64,000 nucleotides of DNA from Mycoplasmatota bacterium (GTDB taxonomy: Bacteria; Bacillota_I; Bacilli_A; MAG-NZ): contig CP074575.1 in the NCBI GenBank assembly GCA_018394315.1, forward strand, positions 372,001 to 436,000, read 5' to 3'. Below the pieces are notes generated by a model. It saw nothing but the letters and a program-made list of their open reading frames with translations, did no database searches and had not been told where the DNA came from. Below, piece by piece: positions 1,934 through 40,739 of the stretch (positions are counted from its first letter, which is position 1; every line of letters starts with the position of its first letter). A program made the translations under genes and the position numbers.

Positions 1934-2668
1934 ATCATAACTACCAGTTGAACTGGTAGTTTGCTCAGCGCCTATAAGGCTTGATGCTGGCTATGTCTCA
2001 AGACATTCTGAAGATCTGCCATCCGCATCCCTCTTCTAACTTGCTCCTAAAAGGAGCTTTTTTATTTGTTTACTTTATCTTCTCACCCGTGAACGGGTCT
2101 ATGAATTCCTTCATACTCATCTGATCTTGTATTTTGTCTTCTTGTATCTGATTCTTTATATATTTTTGTATCACTATCTTATTTCTTCCTACTGTATCTA
2201 CATAGTACCCTCGACACCAAAATTTTCTATTCTCATATTTGTATTGCAAGTTCGCATGTCTGTCAAATATCATCAATGAACTTTTTCCCTTCAAGTATCC
2301 TACAAAGGATGAAACACTCAGTTTTGGTGGTATTGATAATAGCATGTGTACATGGTCAACACATGCATTAGCTTCTATTATTTCAACATTCTTTCTTTCA
2401 CATAGTTTTCTCAGCATTATGCCAATACCACTTTTGATTCTTCCATATATTATCTGTCTTCTGTATTTGGGTGCGAAAATTATGTGATACTTACAATTCC
2501 ATGTTGTGTGTGATAAACTATTACTATCCAAATGGATACCTCCTTGATTTGAATTTGGTTGGCAGACCTAATTCATTCTATCATAGGAGGTTTTCCTTTT
2601 ATTTCTTTTCCTCACCGGCAAAGCCTCTTTGGAACTACTCGCATAGCAAGTGGTTTTCGCCTAACAAT
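1934..2668 (-). mobile_element. IS200/IS605-family element, tnpA only (ends approximate)
   Basis: Y1 transposase flanked by related subterminal hairpins aactaccagtt-g-aactggtagtt (1939-1961) and aactactcgcatagcaagtggtt (about 2633-2655). Confidence 0.8.
2070..2531 (-). CDS. tnpA: IS200/IS605 Y1 transposase
   Basis: WNCKYHIIFAPKYRR N-terminus, HUH motif DHVHML, FWCRGYY and catalytic YIKNQ. Confidence 0.97.
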   Translation of the reverse strand: MDSNSLSHTTWNCKYHIIFAPKYRRQIIYGRIKSGIGIMLRKLCERKNVEIIEANACVDHVHMLLSIPPKLSVSSFVGYLKGKSSLMIFDRHANLQYKYENRKFWCRGYYVDTVGRNKIVIQKYIKNQIQEDKIQDQMSMKEFIDPFTGEKIK

Positions 2669-2697
2669 AAAAATGAGCTATCATTTCACATGATAAC

Positions 2698-4204
2698 GGC
2701 TGTAAAATTAAGTTTGGGGTAAGAGAGTTATTCTCTTATTTCAAACTTTTTTAATGGATACAAAAAAAGTGCATAATAATCCGATATAATTTAAGCGCTC
2801 AAACCTAATTAGAAAGGAAATTATTATGCACTCAAATTCTATCACATTTAATAATGATATAAAATCTATTTTCAATATCCACGATAAATCTATAGTCCTA
2901 GATAACTATGAAATTATCGATGACTCAATAATCATTCATCTTTCAAGGAATCGCCAATTAGTCAAATGTTCAGTCTGTGGAGAATTAACTGATAAGGTCC
3001 ACGACTATTATATTCGCACTATTAATCATGGTGTTTTCAATAACCGTAAGTGTTTTATTAAATACAAGCAACGTAGATATCGTTGTGATTGTGGTAAGAG
3101 ATTCTCTTTACCTAATCAATTTGTTGAGAAGTACAATAAGATTAGTTCTAACTCTAAATGGAGTATCATTAACGAGGCTATACTTGTTTCTTCTTTCAAA
3201 GACATGGGGAAAAGACTTAATATGTCTTCTACCACTGTAAGAAGAATATTTAATATACATTGTAAACAATCTAGAAAGTCTTTACCTAGAGTATTAAGCA
3301 TTGATGAATTCAAAGGTAATAGTGGTGGATACAAATACAATCTAAGTATTTGTGATCCTTCTAATAGACAAATAATAGATATATTACCTTGTAGATATAA
3401 GGATTACTTACACCACTACTTTAGTACGTTTTCTTCTGAAGAACTAAGTAATGTAGAGGTTATTACTATGGATATGTATCATACTTACCACGATATTTGT
3501 AAGGAATTCTTTCCTAACGCTACTATAGTAATCGATACTTTCCACTTTGTTAGACTAGTTACCAATGCAGCTAATAATGTAAGGATTAGAATTATGAAGA
3601 AGTTTAATCGAATTGATAAGCAATACAAAGTCCTCAAATCTAGATGGAGATTATTTAATACTAAACCAGATTGCATCTCGGATAAATGGATATTTGATAA
3701 AAGGAGTAAGCAATGGACAAGTGATTCATCATTACTTGATTACATGAGAAACATTCATCCAGAGTTAGGTAAGACCAGAGAGTTACTAGAATCGTTTTAT
3801 GAGATTGTTCATAACTCAAGCTATCCTACCGTTTATCATGAGCTCAATAATTGGATCATTGAAGCGAAGAAAACTAACATTGGTGAAGTTAGAGAAGCAG
3901 CATTATCTATAGAAAGGTGGTTACCTGAGATAGTTAATTCGTTTATGATTAATCCTGATACTGAAACTAAATACACCTCAGCCTTTATTGAAGGTAGTAA
4001 TAACTATATCAAAGTGATAAAACGTACTTCATATGGATTTAGATGTTTCAATACTTTTAGAAACAAAATACTTTATCATCACAATAATTCAAGACATATT
4101 ATATCTGCATAGTTATGCACAAAAAAAGGACATAGATTTTTTCAATCTATATCCTTAAACTCTTACTCATTTATTGAGTTTACCCCAATCCTTGACTTAG
4201 AGCC
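2698..4204 (+). mobile_element. Intact ISL3-family insertion sequence with 8-bp target-site duplication
   Basis: Imperfect 25-bp terminal inverted repeats (ggctgtaaaattaagtttggggtaa / ttaccccaatccttgacttagagcc, 18/25) flanked by direct repeat atgataac at 2690-2697 and 4205-4212. Confidence 0.93.
2826..4112 (+). CDS. ISL3-family DDE transposase
   Basis: Zn-finger CSVCG...RYRCDCG, SIDEF, ITMDM, IDTFH and EGSNNYIKVIKRTSYGFR motifs. Confidence 0.96.
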   Translation: MHSNSITFNNDIKSIFNIHDKSIVLDNYEIIDDSIIIHLSRNRQLVKCSVCGELTDKVHDYYIRTINHGVFNNRKCFIKYKQRRYRCDCGKRFSLPNQFVEKYNKISSNSKWSIINEAILVSSFKDMGKRLNMSSTTVRRIFNIHCKQSRKSLPRVLSIDEFKGNSGGYKYNLSICDPSNRQIIDILPCRYKDYLHHYFSTFSSEELSNVEVITMDMYHTYHDICKEFFPNATIVIDTFHFVRLVTNAANNVRIRIMKKFNRIDKQYKVLKSRWRLFNTKPDCISDKWIFDKRSKQWTSDSSLLDYMRNIHPELGKTRELLESFYEIVHNSSYPTVYHELNNWIIEAKKTNIGEVREAALSIERWLPEIVNSFMINPDTETKYTSAFIEGSNNYIKVIKRTSYGFRCFNTFRNKILYHHNNSRHIISA

Positions 4205-4239
4205 ATGATAACTCATTCGACTAGACCTTTTTAGATTAT

Positions 4240-5220
4240 TTACAAATTATCAAAATTATTATATCTTTCTTTTAATTCCATTAATCTGTCTTTACATAAT
4301 AATATTATAATCAAACATTCAATGATATCTATTGTTTCTATATAATCTATATCAAATGAACCTTCTTTCAAAAGATTATCTATAAACTCATTCAAATCAT
4401 TAACTATCTTATCTTCAACACTATAGTTATAAACTTTAAGTGAATGAAGTGAAAAATTTCTTAGCGATAGATGGTCATATTTATTACTCTTAATCGATGT
4501 TACAATTTTTGAATAGGCTATATTTAACGCTGATATCAATCCAGCAATTTGAAAACTTCTACCTTTATTATCAATTAACTTTTTCAAATGCATTTTTGCT
4601 GCAAAATCCAAGATCTCTTGATCGGCTTGAAGAACAAATTCAAATGCATCTGAACTGTCATCATATGCTAATTTATAAACTACATCACAAGAGTATTTAT
4701 TTATAATTCCAATAGCAATATCATTTGATAACATTACTTCTAAACTTTCTTCCCCAACAAATACATTAATCTCATTTTCAGTATCAAGAGCTTTTTGACT
4801 ATTAATCACTAATCTTCCTTGCCTTATGATTGTTTGAGTAATCATAAACAAGACTGATAATAAAAATACGTATATAGTAATGAAGGTGTATAAAAGATGT
4901 AAATTTGTCAATTTGAATATTAATACTAAAAATAACGATATGATAAATGATACAGAAATCTTTCTTATACATTTCTTAAAAGCATGCCAAACTATAACAA
5001 CTATTATTTTAGAGTAAAGATGCCATTTTGGATACTTGCGCTCAATATCCATTAGTTTACTAGAATAAAAGTGTATTAATAAGGTATATAAAAATATTGT
5101 ATTAATTCTTTCATTGTCCTTCATCATGGTATGAGTTTCTCTTAAACTAGTTTTATAGAAGTCATCTACATAAGATGTAAATCGACTATTTATATGCGAT
5201 AATTCAGACGCCAAATACAT
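4240..5220 (-). CDS. Unknown membrane protein, copy A (start moved to ATG 5220)
   Basis: GGAG ribosome site before MYLASEL; 2-3 central hydrophobic segments; no recognised family. Confidence 0.75.
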   Translation of the reverse strand: MYLASELSHINSRFTSYVDDFYKTSLRETHTMMKDNERINTIFLYTLLIHFYSSKLMDIERKYPKWHLYSKIIVVIVWHAFKKCIRKISVSFIISLFLVLIFKLTNLHLLYTFITIYVFLLSVLFMITQTIIRQGRLVINSQKALDTENEINVFVGEESLEVMLSNDIAIGIINKYSCDVVYKLAYDDSSDAFEFVLQADQEILDFAAKMHLKKLIDNKGRSFQIAGLISALNIAYSKIVTSIKSNKYDHLSLRNFSLHSLKVYNYSVEDKIVNDLNEFIDNLLKEGSFDIDYIETIDIIECLIIILLCKDRLMELKERYNNFDNL

Positions 5221-6505
5221 TATTACTCCATATTTGTTCTTCAAAACGATTAAACTCTCTAGGTTTTCCATACCAAAAACCTTGAACTAAATTTAAGTCA
5301 TATTTAATAAGCGCGTGTAATTCATCTACCTTTTCAATTTTTGTAACAATAACTTGTACTCCTTTAGATACAAGAAATTCTATAAACTTTGAAAATTCTG
5401 GTTTCTTGTAATGGTCAGTTGTTATTTTTATCATATCATAAGGAAATTTTCCATGGATCTCAATTAACTCATCAAAGCTAAATGAGATATTATCAATGCA
5501 TACCTTAAACCCTATGTCTTGTATTTTTCTTAGGTTAGATATACAGTCATTATCCTTGAATGTTACCATATTAATATGTATTAGAATATTGTTGACTGGA
5601 ACTTGTTTATATCTTCGAATCAAGTTATCGAGCCTTTTCACAAATGAATCACTCAATGATTCTTTTGCAACCTTGATTCCTATAATAAAATTTTCATCAA
5701 CTAAATTCTTATTGAGTAATTTTAAATAATTTTTGAGTGCATCCTCAGCTATACCAAAGTCTACATTTGAAATTAGGTTTCTTTTAATAGCTAATGGTAT
5801 AAACACATTAGGATTTAAAACTTTGTCCTTGTTTTTCCACCTTGCAAGTGTTTCAAAACCTACGATTTTGACCTTTTTAGTATCGTATATACATAAATAA
5901 TGGGATATTATCTTATTTGAATCATCAATTCCATAACTTTTTTCTACGTTATTTGGGTTATCCAAATTTATTAAATTATAATTAGTGTTCCGATTTTTAG
6001 CTATATGACAACTACTAATAACTATGTCTAGTAAATCTTCTGAATTTGTTGGCAGTGACTTACTTATTACTGCACCTATATGAAACTTAAGCTTGATCTT
6101 TCTATTATCAATCTTAATATTTTTGTTTAAGTTATTTATTAATCTATCAGCTAACTGATGATGATTTGATTTTTTTTCTCTATTTACTAATACGAATTTT
6201 TCATCAGAAAAGCAAAATAAACTAAACATATATTCTTTAGAGTACTTCTTCAAAATAGAGATTAACTTACCTCTTATAATGCTTTCTTCCTTATCCGTGT
6301 ATACATTTTCTTTTAATTCGCTCATCTCTATATATAATACAAATCCAACATTATTTTTCTTCAAATGCCTATAAAATGAAAACCTACTTAGAATAGAATA
6401 TCTTCTGTTATATAGAATAGATTTTTGTAAAGTAATTTTTGTAAGAAAATAAAAAACAATCGGAGTTATTATTATTAAAATAAAAAATATATATTCCTTT
6501 GACAT
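5204..6505 (-). CDS. Membrane-anchored degenerate GGDEF-EAL domain protein, copy A
   Basis: N-terminal TM helix; GGDEF-like region with SDEKF; EAL-domain landmarks GFETLARW, PNVFIPLA, DMIKI, VQGFWYGKP. Confidence 0.85.
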   Translation of the reverse strand: MSKEYIFFILIIITPIVFYFLTKITLQKSILYNRRYSILSRFSFYRHLKKNNVGFVLYIEMSELKENVYTDKEESIIRGKLISILKKYSKEYMFSLFCFSDEKFVLVNREKKSNHHQLADRLINNLNKNIKIDNRKIKLKFHIGAVISKSLPTNSEDLLDIVISSCHIAKNRNTNYNLINLDNPNNVEKSYGIDDSNKIISHYLCIYDTKKVKIVGFETLARWKNKDKVLNPNVFIPLAIKRNLISNVDFGIAEDALKNYLKLLNKNLVDENFIIGIKVAKESLSDSFVKRLDNLIRRYKQVPVNNILIHINMVTFKDNDCISNLRKIQDIGFKVCIDNISFSFDELIEIHGKFPYDMIKITTDHYKKPEFSKFIEFLVSKGVQVIVTKIEKVDELHALIKYDLNLVQGFWYGKPREFNRFEEQIWSNNVFGV

Positions 6506-6538
6506 TTAATCACATCCAGTCATTTTAACTTTAGAAAT

Positions 6539-6572
6539 AAAATCCATCCTAGAATTCTAGAAATGGATTTTT
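6539..6572 (-). terminator. Terminator-like hairpin between mreB pair and GGDEF-EAL gene, copy A
   Basis: Stem aaaatccat...atggatttt enclosing ctagaattctag; same hairpin at 11633-11667. Confidence 0.55.
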
Positions 6573-6580
6573 TCAGACAA

Positions 6581-7606
6581 TTAATCTAAAGGTTTTACTA
6601 AGTAACTACCTTTATTTTTCAATAATACTTTAGTACCTTCACAAATTGCAGTCAATGCGTTACTAGTTATTTTAACATCAACTTGTAATCTATTTGACAA
6701 GAAATCAGCGATACCATGAATTAACGCTCCACCACCATTAACAATAATTCCATCATTGATAATATCAGCTGCTAACTCTGGAGGAGTTTGCTGTAATACT
6801 CTTTGAACTGTATTTACAATTTCCTCGAAAGCTTCTATTAAAACATCTCTAATCTCTTTTTGAGTAATTTCGATTTCTTTTGGTAAACCAGTTAATAAAT
6901 CTCTACCTGCGATCTTCATCGTTTCAGATGCGCCAGATAACGCTTCATCTAAAGTACCAATTTCTTTTTTGATTTTTTCAGCTGAAATCGAACCGATAAG
7001 TACTTGATGAGTAAACTGAATATGTTTAATAATCGCTTCATCAAAGAATGTTCCTGCGACACGAATCGATTCAGAATTTACTATATCACCAAGTGATAAC
7101 ACACCGATATCTGTTGATCCTCCACCGATATCAATAACCATAGCTCCCTGAGGTTTGAAAATATCTGCGCCTGCCCCGATTGCTCCAGCTTTGACTTCTT
7201 CTTCAATAAAACATTCACCAATACCTAGGTCTGAAGCTAGTTCAATTAAAGAATCTCTCTCTATTTGAGTTACTTCTGAAGGGCAGCTTAATAGAAGAGT
7301 TGATGCCGAAAGATCATAAGAATCTTTATCTATCTTCTGTAGTACATACTCAATCAAAGTTCCTGCAGATCTAATGTCTGATATTACACCTAGGTGTAAA
7401 GGCTTAGAAATAGTAATTCTATCATGAGTTTTACCAACCATTTTTGCCGCTTCTTTACCAACAGCTATAGTTTCACCAGTTTCATTATCGTACGCAACTA
7501 CAGATGGTTCATTAAATACAACACCTTTCCCCGCTACATACACTAGAGTATTAACTGTACCCAGATCAACACCTATACTTAATCCTTTTTTCTTTTTAGT
7601 TTCCAT
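6581..7606 (-). CDS. mreB: MreB-family actin-like protein (paralog 2, copy A)
   Basis: GVDLGTVNT phosphate-1, NEPSVVA, DIGGGSTD phosphate-2 and GGGALI adenosine motifs. Confidence 0.95.
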   Translation of the reverse strand: METKKKKGLSIGVDLGTVNTLVYVAGKGVVFNEPSVVAYDNETGETIAVGKEAAKMVGKTHDRITISKPLHLGVISDIRSAGTLIEYVLQKIDKDSYDLSASTLLLSCPSEVTQIERDSLIELASDLGIGECFIEEEVKAGAIGAGADIFKPQGAMVIDIGGGSTDIGVLSLGDIVNSESIRVAGTFFDEAIIKHIQFTHQVLIGSISAEKIKKEIGTLDEALSGASETMKIAGRDLLTGLPKEIEITQKEIRDVLIEAFEEIVNTVQRVLQQTPPELAADIINDGIIVNGGGALIHGIADFLSNRLQVDVKITSNALTAICEGTKVLLKNKGSYLVKPLD

Positions 7607-7620
7607 AATTACCCTCCTTC

Positions 7621-8715
7621 TTATTCAGTATCTGCATCTTTTACAAAGTGCCCTCGTGTTTTAAGTAATACTTTGGTACCTAAAACTACCGAAGTTAACG
7701 GATTACTAGAAACTCTAACTTTTAATCCAAGTTTTTCAGTAAAATACTCAGCAGCATGATCTACTAATGAAACACCACCATTTAATAAGATTCCATCATA
7801 ATATATGTCTGAACATAACTCAGGTGGAGTATCTTTAAATGCAGAAATAATTAAGTTTTTAATGTCATTAAAGATAGGTAATAATACTTCAGTTACGTTT
7901 CTTGATGTAATCTCTGTATGTCTTGGTAAACCTGTTAATAAATCTCTACCAGCAACTCGCATTGTAGCTACGTCTTTTTTCTCATTTACAGTTCCTAATT
8001 CAATTTTTATTCTCTCAGCAGTTTTTTGCCCAATCTCAATTTTCAAATGTTGTTTACAATACTTAATAATTTCATGATCAATAAAATTACCAGCCATTCT
8101 TAACGTTTTAGATAATACAACATCACCTAAGTTAAGAATACCAACATCGGTAGATCCACCACCAATATCAACCACCATTGTACCTCGGTCATCATAGATA
8201 TCTACACCAGATCCTACACATCCAGACTTAATTTCTTCCTCAATATAAACTTCTTCTATCCCTAATTGTTGAGGAAGTTGCAATAAAGCTTTTCTTTCGA
8301 TTTGAGTTACCTCTGATGGGCAACACAGTACACTTCTAATCTCAGAGTTGCTTGCATGTAAGTTTACTTTAGAAAACACGAATTTAAGTAAATCTTTAGC
8401 GGCTCTAATATCAGAAATAACACCATCTCTTAAAGGTCTAACTATTTTAATTTTATCATGAGTTTTCCCAGTCATGTTATCTGCCTCAAACCCGGCTGCG
8501 ATTACTTTTCTCGAATCTCTATCGTATGCTACTATAGAAGGTTCATCAAATATGATTCCTTGTCCTTCAACATAGACTAGTAAATTTACCGTTCCGAAGT
8601 CGATACCAACTCCAACTTTTCTGACTTCGATGTTCTCAGGAGTCTCTTCAACTACTTCTTCAATAGTTTCGAAAGATTCAAGAGGTTCTTTTTTAGAATT
8701 TTTATTTTTAATCAC
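7621..8715 (-). CDS. mreB: MreB-family actin-like protein with acidic N-terminal extension (paralog 1, copy A)
   Basis: GIDFGTVN, DEPSIVA, PLRDGVI, DIGGGSTD, GRDLLTGLP, TPPEL motifs. Confidence 0.95.
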   Translation of the reverse strand: MIKNKNSKKEPLESFETIEEVVEETPENIEVRKVGVGIDFGTVNLLVYVEGQGIIFDEPSIVAYDRDSRKVIAAGFEADNMTGKTHDKIKIVRPLRDGVISDIRAAKDLLKFVFSKVNLHASNSEIRSVLCCPSEVTQIERKALLQLPQQLGIEEVYIEEEIKSGCVGSGVDIYDDRGTMVVDIGGGSTDVGILNLGDVVLSKTLRMAGNFIDHEIIKYCKQHLKIEIGQKTAERIKIELGTVNEKKDVATMRVAGRDLLTGLPRHTEITSRNVTEVLLPIFNDIKNLIISAFKDTPPELCSDIYYDGILLNGGVSLVDHAAEYFTEKLGLKVRVSSNPLTSVVLGTKVLLKTRGHFVKDADTE

Positions 8716-8751
8716 ACATATTCTCCTTTCGTCTTGCTCTTTAACATTCTA

Positions 8752-8780
8752 ATTTTATCAAGTTTAAACAAATTTCGCTA
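8752..8780 (-). promoter_or_regulatory. Promoter of module copy A
   Basis: Minus strand TAGCGA-N17-TAAAAT with extended TG; same arrangement upstream of copy B. Confidence 0.55.
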
Positions 8781-8892
8781 TCGAGATTTACTTAATCGAT
8801 GAATACAATTGAATAGTTTATTTGATAAATTAATTAATTATTAAGAACTTTATTAAATAATATTATTTTAATATGGTTAATACCATGTTTTG

Positions 8893-9209
8893 GAAAGAAA
8901 ATTTAGTGACTTATTTATTTAGAGAAGCACCAAATACTATCGAGAATTGGCAACCTGAAATTACTAATTCATTTATAATTAATTCTGAGGCAAATTCTAA
9001 GTATATTAATGATTATATCGAAGCCACAAATAATTATTTTGAGTCACTAAAACGAATGTCATACAGTATTAGAAATTTCAATACATTCTGAAACAAGATT
9101 ATTTACCAGCGGACGATCCACTTACGGTTTGGTTACTAAAAAAAGTATTACTCTAAAATAAGAGCGATACTTAATTATTTGCTTTTGATCCCATCCTTGA
9201 TTCAGAGCC
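8893..9209 (+). pseudogene. Decayed 3' fragment of an ISL3 element including its right inverted repeat
   Basis: REAPNTIENWQPEITNSFIIN...IEATNNYFESLKRMSYSIRNFNTF*NKII aligns with the C-terminus of the 2826-4112 transposase; atcccatccttgattcagagcc (to 9209) matches its right IR. Confidence 0.88.
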
Positions 9210-9256
9210 TCTTTTGTAAATAACGTGATATAAAGGTTTGAAATTTTACAACACAC

Positions 9257-9286
9257 TACTAAATGAAAATACACGTTCATTTAGTA
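9257..9286. terminator. Hairpin downstream of module copy B
   Basis: Inverted repeat tactaaatgaa / ttcatttagta. Confidence 0.45.
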
Positions 9287-9333
9287 AATAACAAACTACT
9301 CAATTATTTCTTGAATTAACTCTCCTTCATTGA

Positions 9334-10314
9334 TTACAAATTATCAAAATTACTATATCTTTCTTTTAATTCCATTAGTCTGTCTTTACATAATAAGATT
9401 ATAATCAAACATTCAATGATATCTATTGTTTCTATATAATCTATATCAAATGAACCTTCTTTCAAAAGATTATCTATAAACTCATTCAAATCATTAACTA
9501 TCTTATCTTCAACACTATAATTATAAACTTTAAGTGAATGAAGTGAAAAATTTCTTAGCGATAGATGGTCATATTTATTACTCTTAATCGATGTAACAAT
9601 TTTTGAATAGGCTATATTTAACGCTGATATCAATCCAGCAATTTGAAAACTTCTACCTTTATTATCAATTAACTTTTTCAAATGCATTTTTGCTGCAAAA
9701 TCCAAGATCTCTTGATCGGCTTGAAGAACAAATTCAAATGCATCTGAACTGTCATCATATGCTAATTTATAAACTACATCAGAAGAGTATTTATTTATAA
9801 TTCCAATAGCAATATCATTTGATAACATTACTTCTAAACTTTCTTCCCCAACAAATACATTAATTTCATTTTCAGTATCAAGAGCTTTTTGACTGTTAAT
9901 CACTAATCTTCCTTGCCTTATGATTGTTTGAGTAATCATAAACAAGACTGATAATAAAAATACGTATATAGTAATGAAGGTGTATAAAAGATGTAAATTT
10001 GTCAATTTGAATATTAATACTAAAAATAACGATATGATAAATGATACAGAAATCTTTCTTATACATTTCTTAAAAGCATGCCAAACTATAACAACTATTA
10101 TTTTAGAGTAAAGATGCCATTTTGGATACTTGCGCTCAATATCCATTAGTTTACTAGAATAAAAGTGTATTAATAAGGTATATAAAAATATTGTATTAAT
10201 TCTTTCATTGTCCTTCATCATGGTATGAGTTTCTCTTAAACTAGTTTTATAGAAGTCATCTACATAAGATGTAAATCGACTATTTATATGCGATAATTCA
10301 GACGCCAAATACAT
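9334..10314 (-). CDS. Unknown membrane protein, copy B (start moved to ATG 10314)
   Basis: Differs from copy A at 2 residues by manual comparison. Confidence 0.75.
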   Translation of the reverse strand: MYLASELSHINSRFTSYVDDFYKTSLRETHTMMKDNERINTIFLYTLLIHFYSSKLMDIERKYPKWHLYSKIIVVIVWHAFKKCIRKISVSFIISLFLVLIFKLTNLHLLYTFITIYVFLLSVLFMITQTIIRQGRLVINSQKALDTENEINVFVGEESLEVMLSNDIAIGIINKYSSDVVYKLAYDDSSDAFEFVLQADQEILDFAAKMHLKKLIDNKGRSFQIAGLISALNIAYSKIVTSIKSNKYDHLSLRNFSLHSLKVYNYSVEDKIVNDLNEFIDNLLKEGSFDIDYIETIDIIECLIIILLCKDRLMELKERYSNFDNL

Positions 10315-11599
10315 TATTACTCCATATTTGTTCTTCAAAACGATTAAACTCTCTAGGTTTTCCATACCAAAAACCTTGAACTAAATTTAAATCATATTTA
10401 ATAAGCGCGTGTAATTCATCTACTTTTTCAATTTTTGTAACAATAACTTGTACTCCTTTAGATACAAGAAATTCTATAAACTTTGAAAATTCTGGTTTCT
10501 TGTAATGGTCAGTTGTTATTTTTATCATATCATAAGGGAATTTTCCATGGATCTCAATTAACTCTTCGAAGTTAAACGTTATATTATCTATACATACCTT
10601 AAACCCTATGTCTTGTATTTTTCTTAGGCTAGAAATACATTCATTATTATTGAAGGTAATCATATCAATATGAATTAAAATATTATTGACGGGAACTTCT
10701 TTATATCTTCGAATCAAGTTATCAAGCCTTTTCACGAATGAATCACTCAATGATTCTTTTGCAACTTTGATTCCTATAATGAAATTTTCATCAACTAAAT
10801 TCTTATTGAGTAATTTTAAATAATTTTTAAATGCATCCTCAGCTATACTAAAGTCTACATTTGAAATTAGATTTCTTTTAATAGCTAATGGTATAAACAC
10901 ATTAGGATTTAAAACTTTATCCTTATTTTTCCATCTTGCAAGTGTTTCAAAACCTACAATCTTGACCTTTTTAGTATCATATATACATAAATAATGAGAG
11001 ATTATCTTATTTGAGTCATCAATTCCATAACTTTTTTCTACGTTATTTGGGTTATCCAAATTTATTAAATTATAATTGGTGTTCCTATTTTTAGCTATAT
11101 GACAACTACTAATAACTATGTCTAGTAACTCTTCTGAATTCGTTGGCAGAGACTTACTAACGGCAGCTCCTATGTGAAACTTAAGCTTGATCTTTCTATT
11201 ATCAATCTTAATATTTTTGTTTAAGTTATTTATTAATCTATCAGCTAACTGATGATGATTTATTTTTGTATTTGCATTTACTAATACGTACTTTTCATCA
11301 GAAAAATAAAATAAACTAAACTTATATTCTTTAGAGTACTTCTTTAATATAGAGATTAATTTACCTCTTATAATGCTTTTTTCATTATCCGTGTACACAT
11401 TTTCTTTTAATTCGCTCATCTCTATATATAATACAAATCCAACATTATTTTTCTTTAAATGCCTATAAAATGAAAACCTACTCAGAATAGAATATCTTCT
11501 GTTATATAAAATAGATTTTTGTAAAGTAATTTTCGTTAAAAAGTAAAAAATAATCGGAGTTATTATTATTAAAATATAATATATATATTCTTTCGGCAT
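10298..11599 (-). CDS. Membrane-anchored degenerate GGDEF-EAL domain protein, copy B
   Basis: Same motifs as copy A (SDEKY, GFETLARW, VQGFWYGKP). Confidence 0.85.
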   Translation of the reverse strand: MPKEYIYYILIIITPIIFYFLTKITLQKSILYNRRYSILSRFSFYRHLKKNNVGFVLYIEMSELKENVYTDNEKSIIRGKLISILKKYSKEYKFSLFYFSDEKYVLVNANTKINHHQLADRLINNLNKNIKIDNRKIKLKFHIGAAVSKSLPTNSEELLDIVISSCHIAKNRNTNYNLINLDNPNNVEKSYGIDDSNKIISHYLCIYDTKKVKIVGFETLARWKNKDKVLNPNVFIPLAIKRNLISNVDFSIAEDAFKNYLKLLNKNLVDENFIIGIKVAKESLSDSFVKRLDNLIRRYKEVPVNNILIHIDMITFNNNECISSLRKIQDIGFKVCIDNITFNFEELIEIHGKFPYDMIKITTDHYKKPEFSKFIEFLVSKGVQVIVTKIEKVDELHALIKYDLNLVQGFWYGKPREFNRFEEQIWSNNVFGV

Positions 11600-11632
11600 T
11601 TAATCACATCCAGTCATTTTAACTTTAGAAAT

Positions 11633-11667
11633 AAAATCCATCCTAGAATTCTAGAAATGGATTTTTT
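11633..11667 (-). terminator. Terminator-like hairpin, copy B
   Basis: Same stem-loop as 6539-6572. Confidence 0.55.
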
Positions 11668-11674
11668 CAAACAA

Positions 11675-12700
11675 TTAATCTAAAGGTTTTACTAAGTAAC
11701 TACCTTTATTTTTCAATAATACTTTAGTACCTTCACAAATTGCAGTCAATGCGTTATTAGTTATTTTAACATCAACTTGTAATCTATTTGACAAGAAATC
11801 AGCGATACCATGAATTAACGCTCCACCACCATTAACAATAATTCCATCATTGATAATATCGGCTGCTAACTCTGGAGGAGTTTGTTGTAATACTCTTTGA
11901 GCTGTATTTACAATTTCCTCGAACGCTTCTATTAAAACATCTCTAATTTCTTTTTGAGTAACTTCGATTTCTTTTGGTAAACCAGTTAATAAATCTCTAC
12001 CTGCGATCTTCATCGTTTCAGAAGCGCCAGATAACGCTTCATCTAAAGTACCAATCTTCTTTTTAATTTTTTCAGCTGAAATCGAACCGATAAGTACTTG
12101 ATGAGTAAACTGAATATGTTTAATAATCGCTTCATCAAAGAATGTTCCTGCGACACGAATCGATTCAGAAGTTACTATATCACCAAGTGATAACACACCG
12201 ATATCTGTTGATCCTCCACCGATATCAATAACCATAGCTCCCTGAGCTCTAAAAATATCTACACCTGCTCCGATTACTCCAGCTTTGACTTCTTCTTCAA
12301 TAAAACATTCACCAATACCTAGGTCTGAAGCTAGTTCAATTAAAGACTCTCTCTCTATTTGAGTTACTTCTGAAGGGCAGCATAATAGAAGAGTTGATGC
12401 TGAAAGATCATAAGAATCTTTATCTATCTTCTGCAGTACATACTCAATCAAAGTTCCTGCAGATCTAATGTCTGATATTACACCTAAGTGTAAAGGCTTA
12501 GAAATAGTAATTCTATCATGAGTTTTCCCAACCATTTTTGCCGCTTCTTTACCAACAGCAATAGTTTCACCAGTTTCATTATCGTACGCAACTACAGATG
12601 GTTCATTAAATACAACACCTTTCCCCGCTACATACACTAGAGTATTAACTGTACCTAAATCAACACCTATATTTAATCCTTTTTTCTTTTTAGCTTCCAT
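11675..12700 (-). CDS. mreB: MreB-family actin-like protein (paralog 2, copy B)
   Basis: Actin-fold motifs as in copy A. Confidence 0.95.
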   Translation of the reverse strand: MEAKKKKGLNIGVDLGTVNTLVYVAGKGVVFNEPSVVAYDNETGETIAVGKEAAKMVGKTHDRITISKPLHLGVISDIRSAGTLIEYVLQKIDKDSYDLSASTLLLCCPSEVTQIERESLIELASDLGIGECFIEEEVKAGVIGAGVDIFRAQGAMVIDIGGGSTDIGVLSLGDIVTSESIRVAGTFFDEAIIKHIQFTHQVLIGSISAEKIKKKIGTLDEALSGASETMKIAGRDLLTGLPKEIEVTQKEIRDVLIEAFEEIVNTAQRVLQQTPPELAADIINDGIIVNGGGALIHGIADFLSNRLQVDVKITNNALTAICEGTKVLLKNKGSYLVKPLD

Positions 12701-12714
12701 AATTACCCTCCTTC

Positions 12715-13839
12715 TTATTCAGTATCTGCATCTTTTACAAAGTGCCCTCGTGTTTTAAGTAATACTTTGGTACCTAAAACTACCGAAGTTAATGGATTAC
12801 TAGAAACTTTAACTTTTAATCCAAGGTTTTCAGTAAAATACTCAGCAGCATAATCTACTAATGAAACACCACCATTTAATAAGATTCCATCATAATATAT
12901 GTCTGAACATAACTCAGGTGGAGTATCTTTTAATGTAGCAATCATTAAGTTTTTAATGTCATTAAAGATAGGTAATAATACTTCAGTTACGTTTCTTGAT
13001 GTGATTTCTGTATGTCTTGGTAAACCTGTTAATAAATCTCTACCAGCAACTCGCATTGTAGCAACGTCTTTTTTCTCATTTAAAGTTCCTAATTCAATTT
13101 TGATTTTCTCAGCAGTCTTTTGCCCAATCTCAATTTTCAAATGCTGTTTGCAATACTTAATAATTTCATGATCAATAAAATTACCAGCCATTCTTAACGT
13201 TTTAGATAATACAACATCACCTAAGTTAAGAATACCAACATCGGTAGATCCACCACCAATATCAACCACCATTGTACCTCGGTCATTATAGATATCTACA
13301 CCAGATCCTACACAACCAGACTTGATTTCTTCCTCGATATAAACTTCTTCTATCCCTAATTGTTGAGGAAGTTGTAATAAAGCTTTTCTTTCAATTTGAG
13401 TTACCTCTGATGGGCAACACAGTACACCTCTAATTTCAGAGTTGCTTGCATGTAAGTTTACTTTAGAAAACACGAATTTAAGTAAGTCTTTAGCAGCTCT
13501 GATGTCAGAAATAACACCATCTCTTAAAGGTCTAACTATTTTAATTTTATCATGAGTTTTCCCAGTCATGTTATCTGCATCAAACCCGGCTGCAATTACT
13601 TTTCTCGAATCCCTATCGTATGCGACTACAGAAGGTTCATCAAATATGATTCCTTGTCCTTCAACATAGACTAGTAAATTTACCGTTCCGAAGTCGATAC
13701 CAACTCCAACTCTTCTCTCTTCGATGTCTTCATCTGTCTCTTCTAAGACTTCCTCAGTAGTCTCTTCTAAGACTTCTTCAGTAGTCTCCACAGTCTCTAC
13801 AGATTGTACTGATTTTTTTTTAGAATTGATCTTTTGCAT
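12715..13839 (-). CDS. mreB: MreB-family actin-like protein with longer acidic N-terminal extension (paralog 1, copy B; start moved to ATG 13839)
   Basis: Actin-fold motifs; AAGGAG is correctly spaced for ATG 13839 rather than 13848. Confidence 0.95.
   Translation of the reverse strand: MQKINSKKKSVQSVETVETTEEVLEETTEEVLEETDEDIEERRVGVGIDFGTVNLLVYVEGQGIIFDEPSVVAYDRDSRKVIAAGFDADNMTGKTHDKIKIVRPLRDGVISDIRAAKDLLKFVFSKVNLHASNSEIRGVLCCPSEVTQIERKALLQLPQQLGIEEVYIEEEIKSGCVGSGVDIYNDRGTMVVDIGGGSTDVGILNLGDVVLSKTLRMAGNFIDHEIIKYCKQHLKIEIGQKTAEKIKIELGTLNEKKDVATMRVAGRDLLTGLPRHTEITSRNVTEVLLPIFNDIKNLMIATLKDTPPELCSDIYYDGILLNGGVSLVDYAAEYFTENLGLKVKVSSNPLTSVVLGTKVLLKTRGHFVKDADTE
13736..13788. repeat. 24-bp tandem repeat (about 2.2 units) encoding TEEVLEET
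   Basis: gtctcttctaagacttcctcagta / gtctcttctaagacttcttcagta / gtctc. Confidence 0.9.
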
Positions 13840-13907
13840 TATATACATTCTCCTTTCGCCTTGCGATTAATTTATGGCAAATTCTTTGTGGCAAACACTT
13901 AATGTGC

Positions 13908-13936
13908 ATTATATCAAAAACTAACATATTTCGCTA
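13908..13936 (-). promoter_or_regulatory. Promoter of module copy B
   Basis: Minus strand TAGCGA-N17-TATAAT with extended TG. Confidence 0.6.
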
Positions 13937-14583
13937 CTAATAGACACTTAACGACAAAGCATATATAAGTAATTGAATCGACAGAACTTCTACAAAATTT
14001 AGTTATTAGTGAAATCAAGTCGTGAAAAATAGTATTTAATTTATTTTTTTAAAATTAATTAAGTAACGATATTGGTAAAATATGGTAATTTTTCATATTG
14101 TATAACTCACGAAAATACAAAGAATAATAGTAATTTATCTAAGTTATTGAGTCACTCTCTGATATAAGGAGGTTATCGAAATTAGTAGCGTAAAGGATGA
14201 TATGTTAACGCCAAATCAAAATATTTTACGGGCTTCATTTTACCTAAAAAGGTAGGGGACTATAAATTATACTCTTCTCCATAGGAAATTCCAATTCCAG
14301 GCGTACTGGTTCTCCTTGATGGGAAGGATACCAAGAAAGTTTACACAACTGATTATTATTCAACTAATTATAAGTTTACATGTAACGATGTTGAATATTC
14401 TCTCAAAAAAGACTGTTTAAACTTCCTTCAAGAAATATTAGATCAAGTTCATTTACCTAATTTGTTCTTTTGCTTTAGTTCATTCAGGTATCCACTCACA
14501 GATATATATACTCGATATGATTTGCTTTAAATTATTATATTATAAAAAAAAGACAAATATTTGCAGTTTATCATTGCTTATAT

Positions 14584-14612
14584 AATCGAGGAGTAGGAGA
14601 TATTTGAACACT
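14584..14612 (-). repeat. Degenerate copy of tRNA-Ser 3' end (outermost att-like scar)
   Basis: aatcgaggagtaggagatatttgaacact matches 22037-22065 at 25/29; flank attgcttatataa resembles the tRNA downstream flank. Confidence 0.8.
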
Positions 14613-14687
14613 TCCAAATACAACATAACTCATATTGAATTCCAAGTCCTTATATCAATTTACGCGGACTTCAAACATCACGCTAAG

Positions 14688-14720
14688 AAAAAGTAGAAAA
14701 AATCATTTTTTCTACTTTTT
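14688..14720. terminator. Intrinsic terminator
   Basis: aaaaagtagaaaaaa-tca-ttttttctacttttt just past the stop of the 14755 gene. Confidence 0.7.
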
Positions 14721-14754
14721 GTAGTGTCGTCTCTCGTATTTTCGTCCTTATAAG

Positions 14755-15798
14755 CTATAAGATCATCGATTGTTTTGTTGCTATTTTATTTAATTTTTTT
14801 AGATTTATAATAGGGAAAAGTACTGGTAATGTTACAATTACTAAAATCATTAATAATCCTATATCACTAAGACGATAATAACCTTCGATCAATCCTATAA
14901 TGAACACAAAAAGAACAAATATTGGTAGTACACACAACAAACCGATTTGGAATATGATTATTCTCTTCATATACTTTGAGAATATTATAACCCTAGTAAA
15001 CAAGTATGATAGTACCATAAAAGCAAGCAGTGCAGCTAATAGGTACTCTTCTATGTTTACATATGATCTAACAACTAAACCAGCAAAAGATATTATAAAT
15101 ATAATAGAATATATTATCATACAAATGTCAAAGTATAATTTATGTTTACGTAATAATTTTGCATGATAATCTTTCATCTCTTTATTTGCAACTAATTCTT
15201 TTGTTTCCCATCTAGACATAAGCAATAACACAACAGCACATACAGCAATTATAAATTGTGAAAACATAACAAATTCATTTATTGCTAAATTCGTTACTGA
15301 CAGTGCAAGAAGTAGTGTACTTGATATAAACATTGATAATATATAATAAACGTCTTTATCAAAGATTTTTGTAGAGACAAGTGAAAAATAGATGATTTGA
15401 AATATAATAGTAATAAACATTAACCAAGTTATGTATACAGTGTATCCGGATAACCCTCTATAAATCAATTCAAATCCTCTTAAAATAACGCCGTCATTTA
15501 TGAAAGGTAGAAAAAAAACTAATAAAGATATTGATAGTAAAATAATTTTTAATGAGAAAATCCTGTTATTATAATTCTCTTTTCTAGACTTCCTTTCACC
15601 ATCTAGTAGTTCATTAATTGTAATATTATACAATAGACTTAATTTCCGTAAAATCTCAACATCAGGTATCGACTCTCCTCTTTCCCATTTTGAAACAGCT
15701 TGCCCAGATACATTACATAAGTTTGCGATTTCACTTTGAGTAAGACTTCTTTCTTTTCTAAGACTTAATAAAAAATCACCTATAATTTTATTATTCAT
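14755..15798 (-). CDS. XRE-family HTH protein fused to a multi-pass membrane domain (start moved to 15798)
   Basis: LRKERSLTQSEIA...VSGQAVSKWERGESIPD, then several TM helices; GGAGG 6 nt before ATG 15798. Confidence 0.88.
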   Translation of the reverse strand: MNNKIIGDFLLSLRKERSLTQSEIANLCNVSGQAVSKWERGESIPDVEILRKLSLLYNITINELLDGERKSRKENYNNRIFSLKIILLSISLLVFFLPFINDGVILRGFELIYRGLSGYTVYITWLMFITIIFQIIYFSLVSTKIFDKDVYYILSMFISSTLLLALSVTNLAINEFVMFSQFIIAVCAVVLLLMSRWETKELVANKEMKDYHAKLLRKHKLYFDICMIIYSIIFIISFAGLVVRSYVNIEEYLLAALLAFMVLSYLFTRVIIFSKYMKRIIIFQIGLLCVLPIFVLFVFIIGLIEGYYRLSDIGLLMILVIVTLPVLFPIINLKKLNKIATKQSMIL

Positions 15799-22306: not shown

Positions 22307-23998
22307 ATGATAACTAATTATAAAATTGAAAAGAATAAAGGTAGTGAAGTTCTCCATTTATATTATGAAGGATTTACAACGGAGTTTTCTAGTGATTTCT
22401 TTAAAAACTCTAATGAATCTTTTAAGTCACTCAAAAAACAAATAATTGATTACATTAAAAGTAATAAAATTGATTTTAAAGGAACTATGGCTAAAGTAAT
22501 GATTGGAGGAGCTTTAACTCTTACAGTACTTTTAGGTAATAATATTGCTGTTGAAGCTAGTAATGATTCCTCGCAAGATATCACATATTTCATACAAGAA
22601 GGTGATAACCTATGGAAAATTGCTAGAAAATATAATACAAGTGTAAATGATCTTAAAGCAAGTAATAATCTTCAGTCAGACAATATTTATCCAGGTGAAG
22701 AATTAACTATTCGCTTGCCATTAAACACAAGGAAATATATAGTTCAAGAAGGTGATAATCTTTGGATAATTGCTAGAGAACATAATATAAGTACAGATGA
22801 ACTCAAGACAAGTAATAATTTAACTTCAGATGTTATTCACCCAGGTGACACTTTATATATTTATCCTTCCTCTACTTCTACTCCTACTTCTGTTTATCAA
22901 ATAGAATATGGAGATAGCTTATGGACTGTAGCAAAGAAATTCAATATGTCAGTAAGTGAATTGAAGCAATTAAATAATTTAACTTCAGATGCTATTTACG
23001 TTGGAAATTCACTTATTGTCAATCAAATAAATCCAGTAGAGGAAACACAAAATGAATATATTGTAAAGTCTGGTGATAGTTTATGGAGTATCTCTAATAA
23101 GTTCAATATTTCAGTAGCTGACTTGATTAGAGTCAATAATCTAGATTCTGATGTTATCTATATTAATCAACGACTAACAATTAATTCTACTGTCAATATA
23201 GAAAGTGATATCACTCTTCAACTCCGTTTAGAGAATGGGCAAGTTATAAACATTTCATTAGAAGAATATGTAGTGGGTGTCGTAAGTAGTGAAATGTATC
23301 CACACTTTCATGAAGAAGCACTAAAAGCTCAAGCATTAGCGGCAAGAACATACGCATTGAAGGCTTATGAAGAAGGAGTTATTCTTTCAACAACGGACTA
23401 CCATCAAGTGTATCAAAACGAAGATGCATTAAGAAGATTGTGGGGAGCTAAGTACGACGAATACTACAGTAAAATGGAAAAAGCAGTTTTATCCACTAAA
23501 GGTGAAGTAATAAAATATAACGGTGAGTTGATCGATGCTTTATACTTTTCAACAAGTAACGGAAAAACTGAGAATCCTTTCTATATCTGGGGTGGAGAAC
23601 TAGATTACTTACAAAGTGTTAATAGTCCTTGGGATGTAGAATCAACGGAATATCTCAATACAAAGACAATGAGCTTAGATGAATTCTCAAAATCTCTTGG
23701 AGTACGTTCAAGTAATGTTTATATTGAAGTATTATCTTGGACATCAGGTGACAGAATAGAAAACATTAAGATTGATGGTATAACTTTTGATGGTAACACA
23801 GTAAAATCAAAATTAGGATTACGCTCTACTGATTTTTCGATTAACATTGAAGGGGACATGGTTCATATAGAACAAAGAGGCTGGGGTCATGGTGTTGGAA
23901 TGAGTCAGTATGGAGCTCACTATATGAGTCAAGAAGGATATACCTACGATCAGATTATTAAACACTACTATCAAAATGTTAATATAGAAGCTAGTTAA
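22307..23998 (+). CDS. 4x LysM + SpoIID/LytB-domain peptidoglycan-processing protein
   Basis: Four Y-x-[IV]-xx-GD-x-LW LysM repeats; EEYVVGVVSSEM, EALKAQALAARTY and GWGHGVGMSQYGA SpoIID motifs. Confidence 0.92.
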   Translation: MITNYKIEKNKGSEVLHLYYEGFTTEFSSDFFKNSNESFKSLKKQIIDYIKSNKIDFKGTMAKVMIGGALTLTVLLGNNIAVEASNDSSQDITYFIQEGDNLWKIARKYNTSVNDLKASNNLQSDNIYPGEELTIRLPLNTRKYIVQEGDNLWIIAREHNISTDELKTSNNLTSDVIHPGDTLYIYPSSTSTPTSVYQIEYGDSLWTVAKKFNMSVSELKQLNNLTSDAIYVGNSLIVNQINPVEETQNEYIVKSGDSLWSISNKFNISVADLIRVNNLDSDVIYINQRLTINSTVNIESDITLQLRLENGQVINISLEEYVVGVVSSEMYPHFHEEALKAQALAARTYALKAYEEGVILSTTDYHQVYQNEDALRRLWGAKYDEYYSKMEKAVLSTKGEVIKYNGELIDALYFSTSNGKTENPFYIWGGELDYLQSVNSPWDVESTEYLNTKTMSLDEFSKSLGVRSSNVYIEVLSWTSGDRIENIKIDGITFDGNTVKSKLGLRSTDFSINIEGDMVHIEQRGWGHGVGMSQYGAHYMSQEGYTYDQIIKHYYQNVNIEAS

Positions 23999-36171: not shown

Positions 36172-37365
36172 TTAATTAAGTAAAGAAATCAATCTTCTAA
36201 CAAAGATTACTCCTCCTAATAAGTCAGCAGAGCCTCCAGGACTAATACCCTTAAGAGAATACTCTTTATCTAATTTCTTTATTTTGCTGATATCTAAATC
36301 TAACATATCTGACGCATCATATTTTACTTTTTCTAATACGTCCAAATTATGTCTATAAAGAATTGTTGTATCATCGCAATCACTCATGATTCGAAATAAA
36401 ACTTTTAAATTATCTCCTTCAAGATTCTTAAATATTAAAGGAAATCCCTTTTCTGCTTCTCCTCTTACTCCAGTAATACCATATTTCAAATATACATCTT
36501 TTCCATGAGAATGATATTTACGTTCAAGTAATTCTTTACTAATATCTTTGAAAAGATATCTTATATTGTCCTGCCAATCAATAGAATTTTTAAGCGATTT
36601 GACAAAAGAAATAATCAGTGCTCCAATAATGAATATCCCACCCTTATGAGTATTGACACCATTAGTAGCTTTAAACATTTCTTCTTCCATTGATTTTCCG
36701 ATTTGCTTACATTCAGATAAATCAAGAGTAAAAGACCCTTTAACTATTTTCCTAAACCCATCTCTTAAACTTGCGATACTCTTAAGCATTAGCATATAAT
36801 CCATATCTTTATGCGCACCATTACTATTGGGTGTAACAAGGCCTGGTTTATTTAATAAATTTAGTTCTTCATGTAAACTCTCACATGCTATATCACTTAT
36901 ATAACTACTTAGGTATTCAACAAACATATGATAAATTCTTTGCTGAACTTCATACAAAGAGTGCTTTTCACTTCTAATACAATAATGCGCTATGTCATCA
37001 CAAATCAAACACTTTCTTTGGCTATAACCCAAATCAGTTCTAGATAATTGCTTAAAAGATTCATCATAAACATCAATATCAAGCAATCTACCTAAAGGAT
37101 GATTTTCTTCTATATTGATCATACGTTTCTTTAACTCAGAACTATCAAGATCAACAATACCCAGAAGAACTAAACCTTCCTTATCGTTAATTTCTACTTT
37201 ATGTTCGAAATCCCAATCTAAATCAATTAAATTATATATAGTGTTAACAATATAATTATTTTTAGATCCTGGGTAATTAATTCTAAAGACAACTAAAGGC
37301 ATGTTGAACTCACTAACTAATTCTTTTTGTAAATTAAATCTCTTTTCTCTAGCTTCTAAAATCAT
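36172..37365 (-). CDS. citXG: Fused CitX holo-ACP synthase / CitG triphosphoribosyl-dephospho-CoA synthase (start moved to 37365)
   Basis: ILEARE and GRLLDIDV (CitX); KPGLV, NTHKG and SPGGSADL (CitG). Confidence 0.9.
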   Translation of the reverse strand: MILEAREKRFNLQKELVSEFNMPLVVFRINYPGSKNNYIVNTIYNLIDLDWDFEHKVEINDKEGLVLLGIVDLDSSELKKRMINIEENHPLGRLLDIDVYDESFKQLSRTDLGYSQRKCLICDDIAHYCIRSEKHSLYEVQQRIYHMFVEYLSSYISDIACESLHEELNLLNKPGLVTPNSNGAHKDMDYMLMLKSIASLRDGFRKIVKGSFTLDLSECKQIGKSMEEEMFKATNGVNTHKGGIFIIGALIISFVKSLKNSIDWQDNIRYLFKDISKELLERKYHSHGKDVYLKYGITGVRGEAEKGFPLIFKNLEGDNLKVLFRIMSDCDDTTILYRHNLDVLEKVKYDASDMLDLDISKIKKLDKEYSLKGISPGGSADLLGGVIFVRRLISLLN

Positions 37366-40489: not shown

Positions 40490-40733
40490 TTTGGGCCCTC
40501 CTTAGTGCGGTAATCAGTCTAGCTTTGATTGTATAATCATAAGCACCTTTATCTTTAACAACTACTTTACAAGTAATTTGATGTTCTTTTAACGTATCAA
40601 CAATAACTTGATTTATTGCATCTCCAAACTTATCAAATACAATACTATCAATCTCGACTATTAACTTATCACTAGGAGATACAATAACTAAAGCATCATT
40701 ACTTTCAATAGTTCCTGCTTGTGCTATTTTCAT
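40482..40733 (-). CDS. citD: Citrate/citramalate lyase acyl carrier protein
   Basis: AGTIESND with prosthetic-group Ser; DKGAYD. Confidence 0.92.
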   Translation of the reverse strand: MKIAQAGTIESNDALVIVSPSDKLIVEIDSIVFDKFGDAINQVIVDTLKEHQITCKVVVKDKGAYDYTIKARLITALRRAQNE

Positions 40734-40739
40734 AATATC

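Follow-up and report, generated by a model that had tools for sequence, protein, structure and literature searches.

Two MreB proteins can be enough to move a cell. When MreBs of Haloplasma are placed in syn3B, only combinations of an HA with an HB type produce ribbons beneath the membrane and make the cells bend and coil in an ATP-dependent way; B2 moves there together with A2, and in Spiroplasma a cross-clade MreB pair is summarized as sufficient (bioRxiv 10.64898/2026.06.16.731841, hereafter the preprint; it and the other papers cited are used for their accessible parts). The subject here is a stretch of 64,000 nucleotides (the window) from a Mycoplasmatota bacterium (GenBank assembly GCA_018394315.1, contig CP074575.1, positions 372,001 to 436,000), in which two mreB genes are followed by a gene for a membrane protein with degenerate GGDEF and EAL domains and by a fourth gene, for a protein with two transmembrane (TM) segments. 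An earlier note on this DNA saw in these genes a possibly undescribed actin-like module, responsive to a cyclic dinucleotide, in which the fourth protein anchors filaments. I consider it moderately probable that the MreBs form an A and B actuator of shape or motility, independent of the Rod complex, that is controlled by cyclic di-GMP (c-di-GMP) through a membrane-tethered receptor.

The window resembles the HA and HB system of Haloplasma contractile in the clade of its MreBs, in the neighbouring genes of B and A type, in having no MreC that could be found and in a common C-terminal tail motif. It differs in having only two paralog types, with the whole unit duplicated, and in that genes for a dead GGDEF-EAL protein and a two-TM protein, both missing from Haloplasma-type clusters, come after the mreB pair. 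With the I1-I2-I3 clusters of the Izemoplasmatales (Izimaplasma and Xianfuyuplasma) it has in common orthologues of two mreBs (the second and the third), arranged alike and then followed by a dead GGDEF-EAL gene. Unlike the window, those clusters have I1 and a c-di-GMP-I riboswitch and lack the two-TM gene; neither the receptor nor the riboswitch is mentioned in the accessible part of the preprint. (The order name is inferred from the preprint's three-gene layout and the names of relatives.) Spiroplasma, with its swimming ribbon of MreB1-5 and fibril, likewise has several MreB paralogs without MreCD, but its MreBs form a separate clade in the trees, and at three Spiroplasma-type loci (L081-L083), for which only the open reading frames were listed, no neighbour of the size of a GGDEF-EAL gene was recognised.

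On the receptor side, FimX and LapD also have both domains catalytically eroded and are linked to motility or adhesion (PMC3989770), but in the window protein REC, PAS, HAMP and periplasmic domains are absent. The LapD model gives the Izemoplasmatales protein 41 bits against a cut-off of 1020, and the window protein no match. A GGDEF-EAL-type gene directly beside mreB is also the arrangement of csrD and mreBCD in E. coli; there, unlike in the window, mreB is the first gene of a canonical mreBCD operon, and the annotated role of CsrD is to regulate the decay of CsrB and CsrC. The GGDEF-EAL domains of CsrD I take to be degenerate as well.

The duplicated unit and its MreB pair

The unit is as the earlier note described it: eight co-oriented open reading frames on the minus strand, forming two tandem copies of the order mreB1, mreB2, TM protein with dead GGDEF-EAL domains, two-TM protein. 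The features are these.

12715..13848, minus strand: mreB1 of copy B, an A-side MreB with an acidic N-terminal extension; likelier start ATG at 13839, from the spacing to AGGAG
11675..12700, minus strand: mreB2 of copy B, a B-side MreB
11633..11665, minus strand: hairpin of copy B, in the gap between mreB2 and the GGDEF-EAL gene, then a T-rich run; attenuator-like, a putative function
10298..11599, minus strand: protein of copy B with TM segment, degenerate GGDEF and degenerate EAL; 433 aa, the TM segment N-terminal
9334..10314, minus strand: fourth gene of copy B, an all-helical protein with two TM segments; 326 aa
7621..8715, minus strand: mreB1 of copy A; GTG start
6581..7606, minus strand: mreB2 of copy A; MreB_Mbl match
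6539..6571, minus strand: hairpin of copy A, in the gap between mreB2 and the GGDEF-EAL gene
5204..6505, minus strand: protein of copy A with TM segment, degenerate GGDEF (SDEKF) and degenerate EAL (ETL)
4240..5220, minus strand: fourth gene of copy A, a two-TM protein
4126..4156, minus strand: terminator-like hairpin with T run, 3' of copy A, facing an ISL3 transposase

The two copies are 96.1% identical across 4431 bp (4240-8670 against 9334-13764) and have unrelated upstream regions, so the duplication is genuine; an assembly artefact was rejected in view of the 96% identity, the differing flanks and a like duplication at locus L033. Within a copy 14 nt lie between mreB1 and mreB2, and 75 nt, holding the hairpin, between mreB2 and the GGDEF-EAL gene. 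A hairpin occupies the corresponding gap in L033 (two copies), L035 and L117; the hairpin of the window was not called by a scan for G+C-rich terminators. For the fourth gene the likeliest start is 5220/10314, which matches the starts of its homologues and leaves a 17-nt overlap with the end of the EAL gene. Measured against the L033 copy, all four genes are under purifying selection (dN/dS 0.135, 0.11, 0.217 and 0.202). A promoter scan came out at chance level (66 against 65.0), and at the ribosome-binding site of mreB1 the motif GCAAG.CGAAAGGAG is kept in five otherwise unalignable upstream regions (window 13849-13866 and 8716-8738; L033, L035). Copy A is flanked by IS200-like and ISL3 transposases (window 2070-4112), and three more near-identical ISL3 copies lie elsewhere in the genome.

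All four products match Pfam MreB_Mbl (PF06723, 363-379 bits) and the broad MreB model NF010539 (325-339 bits, cut-off 293), and carry the ATP-site motifs D.GT, EE and DIGGGST. They fall below the cut-offs of TIGR00904 (294-319 bits against 365.75) and of the MreBH model NF010540 (295-307 against 515). The two MreBs of a copy are distinct paralogs, 48-49% identical, and the four together are the only MreBs of the genome.

Their relationships were judged from trees of 116 rows (FastTree), 55 rows (IQ-TREE LG+G4), 35 rows (mixture model) and 32 rows, the smaller ones being hand-chosen subsets and none including named Bacillus MreB, Mbl or MreBH. The A and B clade labels come from genome G141, whose seven-gene layout and T160/T161 numbering fit the H. 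contractile of the preprint. All four trees agree in placing mreB1 on the A side and mreB2 on the B side. The first is sister to the middle gene of the Izemoplasmatales triplets (99/95 with LG+G4, 98/93 with the mixture model) and joins the Haloplasma HA group (98/93 with LG+G4; 89/79, not starred, with the mixture model); the second is sister to the third gene of those triplets (99/91 and 98/95, respectively) and nests within HB/HC (99/98). The walled-type MreBs of the class, which occur in single copy, group by themselves (100/100), and those of the Spiroplasma type also fall outside. The check that the earlier note had asked of MreB phylogeny thus puts the window's proteins apart from the walled-type MreBs sampled and inside the Haloplasma/Izemoplasma clade, one on each side. 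With an A and B pair sufficient in the preprint, the window is, to judge from its sequence, an instance of the minimal pair type, encoded twice. At the T160/T161 site, whose Thr was mutated in the preprint, both MreBs have Ser, as does the motile B2.

Some features of these and related MreBs stand by themselves. The N-terminal extension of MreB1 (window 8620-8715 and 13710-13848) begins with a basic tip, after which comes an acidic, repeat-like part of variable length; the extension is absent from the A types of Izemoplasmatales and Haloplasma. The B-side MreB at L117:932-1945 is long-branched, its ATP-site motif altered to DLGAGSI. Genomes that read TGA have very divergent MreB-like genes, in G213 as a tandem pair (L088:2873-5306) and in G017 directly after dnaA-dnaN (L089:2705-3700).

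Could such filaments serve the wall after all, organising the single SEDS/PBP pair or class A PBPs, or spore development through engulfment, or merely a static shape, with no movement? The host genome (2.17 Mb in a single contig, 93.6% complete; nearest named relative Mycoplasmatota bacterium WC44, L031) gives this idea something to stand on. The module has no mreC, mreD, rodA or pbp, as the earlier note said, but the genome as a whole keeps peptidoglycan genes: one SEDS gene within a dcw cluster, three proteins with transpeptidase domains, and Mur ligases; and downstream of ftsZ are genes that resemble spoIIGA-sigE-sigG, as recognised from their sequence. Moreover, Xianfuyuplasma coldseepsis is reported to be non-motile (PMC8397711). 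Against it, the marks of a canonical Rod complex were not found: the sole SEDS gene is the one in the dcw cluster, with no second SEDS protein, and a search for MreC drew a blank in G000, G004, G049 and G141 and succeeded in the control, G158. MreD was not found in the genome either, a weak negative since the profile missed the control too. G049, in which a search for Mur ligases found none, retains the orthologous operon, and G002, of the same family and with a Mur ligase, lacks it. Finally, orthologous pairs move in wall-less syn3B (the preprint). I judge a wall, spore or static role improbable. No flagellin was found in the host genome.

Linkage of the GGDEF-EAL gene to mreB

The neighbourhood check proposed in the earlier note has a clear outcome: the linkage of mreB to a GGDEF-EAL gene is kept far beyond the host genome. 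Triplets of mreB occur in 13 of 81 sampled genomes of the Izemoplasmatales-type order, and a full-length GGDEF-EAL orthologue (E<=1e-45) in 12, every one a triplet carrier; none of the 68 triplet-free genomes has an orthologue at that cut-off, below which other EAL proteins are present. Each of the 12 orthologues adjoins an mreB, at a distance of no more than ~100 bp, in 11 cases following the third gene and in one (G104) preceding the first, and at the thirteenth triplet locus the start of the GGDEF-EAL gene is cut by the end of the contig. Three of eight genomes in the window's own order have mreB together with the receptor gene, and five have neither (G001 is 55% and G007 78% complete). In another family, G287 has a triplet and a GGDEF-EAL gene; a fusion of MreB with EAL there, suggested by an apparent MreB frame of 781 aa, was rejected, the reading frames being separate. 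The gene order middle mreB, third mreB, receptor is the same in the window and Izemoplasmatales lineages. The sampled genomes are kin and not independent, and these counts are therefore put forward as conservation, with no statistical test.

It is conceivable that the GGDEF-EAL and membrane genes share the MreB operon through history only, as genomic hitch-hikers. A hairpin does separate mreB2 from the genes downstream, one copy of the membrane gene in L033 is a pseudogene, and unrelated EAL genes with intact motifs also adjoin solo mreBs in G143 and G146. A passenger would hardly, however, be present or absent jointly with the mreBs in every sampled genome of two orders (81 of 81 and 8 of 8), remain adjacent through the rearrangement in G104, and keep its place in a four-gene order at ~25% identity in L117. 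I think mere hitch-hiking very unlikely.

The solo mreBs just mentioned, in Haloplasma-type genomes, are of the B type (G146, L077:1775-3469; G143, L079:2716-4386), each with a TM-GGDEF-EAL gene with intact phosphodiesterase motifs directly 3'. Those EAL proteins group with ordinary EALs; this is a second link of mreB to c-di-GMP, apparently an independent one.

Other genes recur in the related clusters. After the GGDEF-EAL gene, and usually before a cardiolipin synthase, 8 of 13 Izemoplasmatales-type loci encode an 880-aa soluble protein that looks like a coiled coil (L041:12808-15456; likewise L059-L064 and L066); it has no NCBIfam or significant Pfam match and is a possible further part of the cytoskeleton. 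Nine of 12 Haloplasma-type genomes have 5-9 MreBs. Their clusters hold, between an mreB triplet and an mreB pair at seven loci, a protein of 620-630 aa with a weak C-terminal PIN match (L036:5008-6873, L037:9128-11002, L040:9589-11469 and others) and, after the pair, one of 440-525 aa with a single C-terminal TM segment.

Receptor, riboswitch and fourth protein

That the GGDEF-EAL protein is enzymatically dead, as the earlier note supposed, is borne out by the loss of catalytic residues from both domains. The aligned GGDEF site reads SDEKF and so departs from the GG(D/E)EF motif; Pfam gives the EAL domain 94 bits and the GGDEF domain (PF00990) 17.8 bits, below the cut-off of 23.8. The active-site positions of an EAL enzyme I take to be E(AL), N, E, DD(FG), K, the general-base E, and Q. 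The window domain keeps E218, R222, D338, K360 and Q408, and has K278, H314, N339 and T388 for the N, E, D and E of the aligned enzyme Bd1971, whose DDFGTG reads DNISFS here. The Izemoplasmatales orthologues have lost the second Asp and the general-base Glu through other changes. The module proteins are only 20-25% identical between lineages, but G216, E218, L220, R222, W223, K360, Q408 and G409 are invariant in 15 of 15 of them and in L117; ExLxRW, K and QG unchanged while the remainder drifts fits a pocket that is kept. In its sequence the window protein fits the pattern of degenerate GGDEF-EAL receptors of the FimX/LapD type, with dead sites and with ExLxR and QG retained. Dead EAL domains go either way: LapD and FimX bind c-di-GMP, and YcgF binds nothing (PMC3989770).

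Whether the window and Izemoplasmatales receptors are orthologous depends somewhat on the tree. The EAL domain alone leaves it unresolved (30 of 38 rows kept by the motif filter); they form one clade at 65/17 without L117, and at 89/96 with L117 added, long branches being flagged. Synteny favours orthology. A predicted complex of MreB2 with the soluble part of the GGDEF-EAL protein scored 0.00 in two runs, with controls not folded.

Evidence about the ligand comes from the other lineage. A c-di-GMP-I riboswitch (RF01051, 56-77 bits, cut-off 35) lies ~130-150 nt 5' of the first mreB at 12 of 13 Izemoplasmatales-type loci and in G287, that is at 13 of 14, the exception being the rearranged G104; such elements total only 2-7 per genome in the five genomes checked. 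The leaders share a segment complementary to the 3' strand of the aptamer and a hairpin with a U run. In the folding model, a free leader whose hairpin 3' strand is blocked pairs aptamer sequence with the hairpin's 5' strand. In all 13 leaders modelled, holding the aptamer folded raises the energy gained by the terminator by 3.5-7.3 kcal/mol; hairpin shuffles match that gain in at most 3 of 60 cases for 11 of the 13 and in 5 and 19 for the other two. By this modelling the architecture is that of an OFF switch. It may be noted of the same leaders (alignment A2) that their first 13-14 nt can pair with a stretch just past the terminator U run, and that in L061 the two sides have both changed, as read by eye. 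No remnant of a riboswitch was found 5' of the window's mreB1, and the L117 contig begins inside its mreB1.

These results bear on a further alternative, that the MreB actuator has a structural or regulatory GGDEF-EAL partner blind to any ligand, like CsrD or YcgF, and that c-di-GMP acts only by way of the riboswitch and leaves the window's module untouched. Such blindness would suit the replacement of four conserved acidic or amide positions in the window's EAL domain, the rapid divergence to 20-25% identity between lineages and the lack of a riboswitch in the window, and there are precedents both in csrD, which adjoins mreB in E. coli, and in YcgF, whose dead EAL domain binds nothing (PMC3989770). 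It does not readily explain why ExLxR, K and QG should be invariant in 15 module proteins and in L117 amid the drift, nor why the orthologous operon should have a c-di-GMP riboswitch at 13 of 14 loci of the other lineage. I regard a ligand-blind partner as unlikely.

The host does possess the means for c-di-GMP signalling. Five of its eight GGDEF matches have an intact-looking motif, and an HD-GYP motif occurs in seven proteins; its only EAL domains are the two in the window. Two c-di-GMP-I riboswitches are present, neither at the module: one target is a secreted-looking protein of 1259 aa, the other an operon that resembles genes for polysaccharide and sulfate activation (labels from sequence).

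The fourth protein has no significant Pfam or NCBIfam match and is rare, with four close matches, seven representatives among 1.84 billion proteins, distant homologues 22-27% identical, and occurrence in 2 of 399 genomes of the class. Searches of the ESM Atlas gave matches under 0.8 or none, and P0006 had no match in phages and plasmids. An alignment-based model (pLDDT 79.7, pTM 0.57) consists of helices only, which form a membrane hairpin and, at the C terminus, a conserved bundle; a single-sequence fold was unusable (pLDDT 46). Fold searches found nothing of note (best Foldseek E 0.66; best VIA Z 7.8, to generic four-helix bundles), and kinship with the C-terminally anchored protein of the Haloplasma-type clusters was rejected (probability 0.2%). 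In L033 one of two copies of the gene is a pseudogene. The four-gene order recurs on L117, a distant metagenome contig (P0033/P0009) whose MreBs share 59% and 48% identity with those of the window and are their sisters in the tree (100/99; 91/95), and the order is therefore old. The anchoring role proposed for this protein finds no support: it is missing from Izemoplasmatales-type and Haloplasma-type clusters, and Haloplasma A and B MreBs make ribbons at the membrane and move in syn3B without such a partner (the preprint), so that an anchor is not needed. Its overlap with the receptor gene and its position behind the hairpin suggest instead that it may work with the receptor.

Elsewhere in the window are a glutamate fermentation cluster (36172-45192: methylaspartate mutase and ammonia-lyase, then citrate-lyase-like genes and a CitX-CitG fusion) and a protein with four LysM domains and a SpoIID domain (22307-23998).

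A model for control of the MreB pair

The reading that I prefer, an MreB actuator under c-di-GMP control, can be put as follows. The mreB1 and mreB2 products would behave as the Haloplasma pair does, so that cells would bend, form protrusions or be reshaped. The dead GGDEF-EAL protein, tethered to the membrane, would bind c-di-GMP at its EAL pocket and, in the manner of FimX or LapD, switch or position the MreB ribbon: when c-di-GMP is high, the machine would be turned down and, at the same time, surface and polysaccharide genes would be adjusted. For the Izemoplasmatales-type order the riboswitch would add a transcriptional OFF switch; the window lineage, with no riboswitch, has a fourth gene in its stead, whose translation would be coupled to that of the receptor. 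At the weakest step of the model, the fourth protein most likely partners the receptor in the membrane and, with its gene behind the intergenic hairpin, is made in smaller amounts.

Much can be said against this. The related genomes are not independent samples. The main clusters of Haloplasma-type genomes have no such GGDEF-EAL receptor and carry other, unknown genes, and Haloplasma MreBs move without the receptor (the preprint). In E. coli, csrD codes for a GGDEF-EAL-type protein annotated to regulate RNA decay and stands immediately upstream of mreB, so adjacency need not imply contact. Xianfuyuplasma coldseepsis, which has three MreBs, was reported to be coccoid and non-motile (PMC8397711). 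The host keeps peptidoglycan genes, and a rigid wall would resist bending. Orthology of the window and Izemoplasmatales receptors is only moderately supported across trees, and the Izemoplasmatales profile ranks the window proteins last of 38, its ranks being mixed overall. The window's EAL pocket is heavily eroded, and some dead EALs, as in YcgF, bind nothing (PMC3989770). Plain minimum-energy folds keep the terminator with or without the aptamer in both leaders printed. Lastly, no riboswitch reached either the gathering score or E<=10 within 3900-15000 of the window, and none was found at L033, L034, L035 or 18 Haloplasma-type loci.

What survives of the cyclic-dinucleotide-responsive module of the earlier note is the A and B MreBs, the dead GGDEF-EAL protein, the conserved linkage and the riboswitch at 13 of 14 loci, and what does not is the filament anchor. 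As for its novelty, the MreB pair as a motor had already been described, and the conserved link of A and B MreBs to c-di-GMP is new here: no link of these MreBs to GGDEF-EAL proteins or c-di-GMP was found in the open literature, the terms GGDEF, EAL and c-di-GMP do not occur in the accessible main text of the preprint, and the accessible parts of PMC10868615 and 10.1101/2023.09.28.559987 do not mention MreB.

A bolder proposal, which I offer tentatively and would not bet on, is that c-di-GMP directly controls an actin-homologue motor in free-living relatives of the mollicutes, with the membrane-tethered dead receptor, joined by a new family of two-TM partners, as clutch or brake on the ribbon of A and B MreBs, and with a riboswitch that turns the operon OFF in the sister lineage. 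Work on MreB-only motors has until now dealt with bare pairs in syn3B, for which the preprint, in its accessible part, names no regulator; the dead GGDEF-EAL protein, the riboswitch and the membrane partner are candidates for their control. The A and B pair is moreover extended to a further order, one whose genome keeps peptidoglycan genes. If the proposal is true, there would be a switch from motile to sessile life that acts on a prokaryotic actin motor, and the coccoid, non-motile look of cultured Izemoplasmatales with three MreBs would be explained. The model predicts that bacteria described as non-motile cocci may have a hidden state, at low c-di-GMP, in which they move or change shape.

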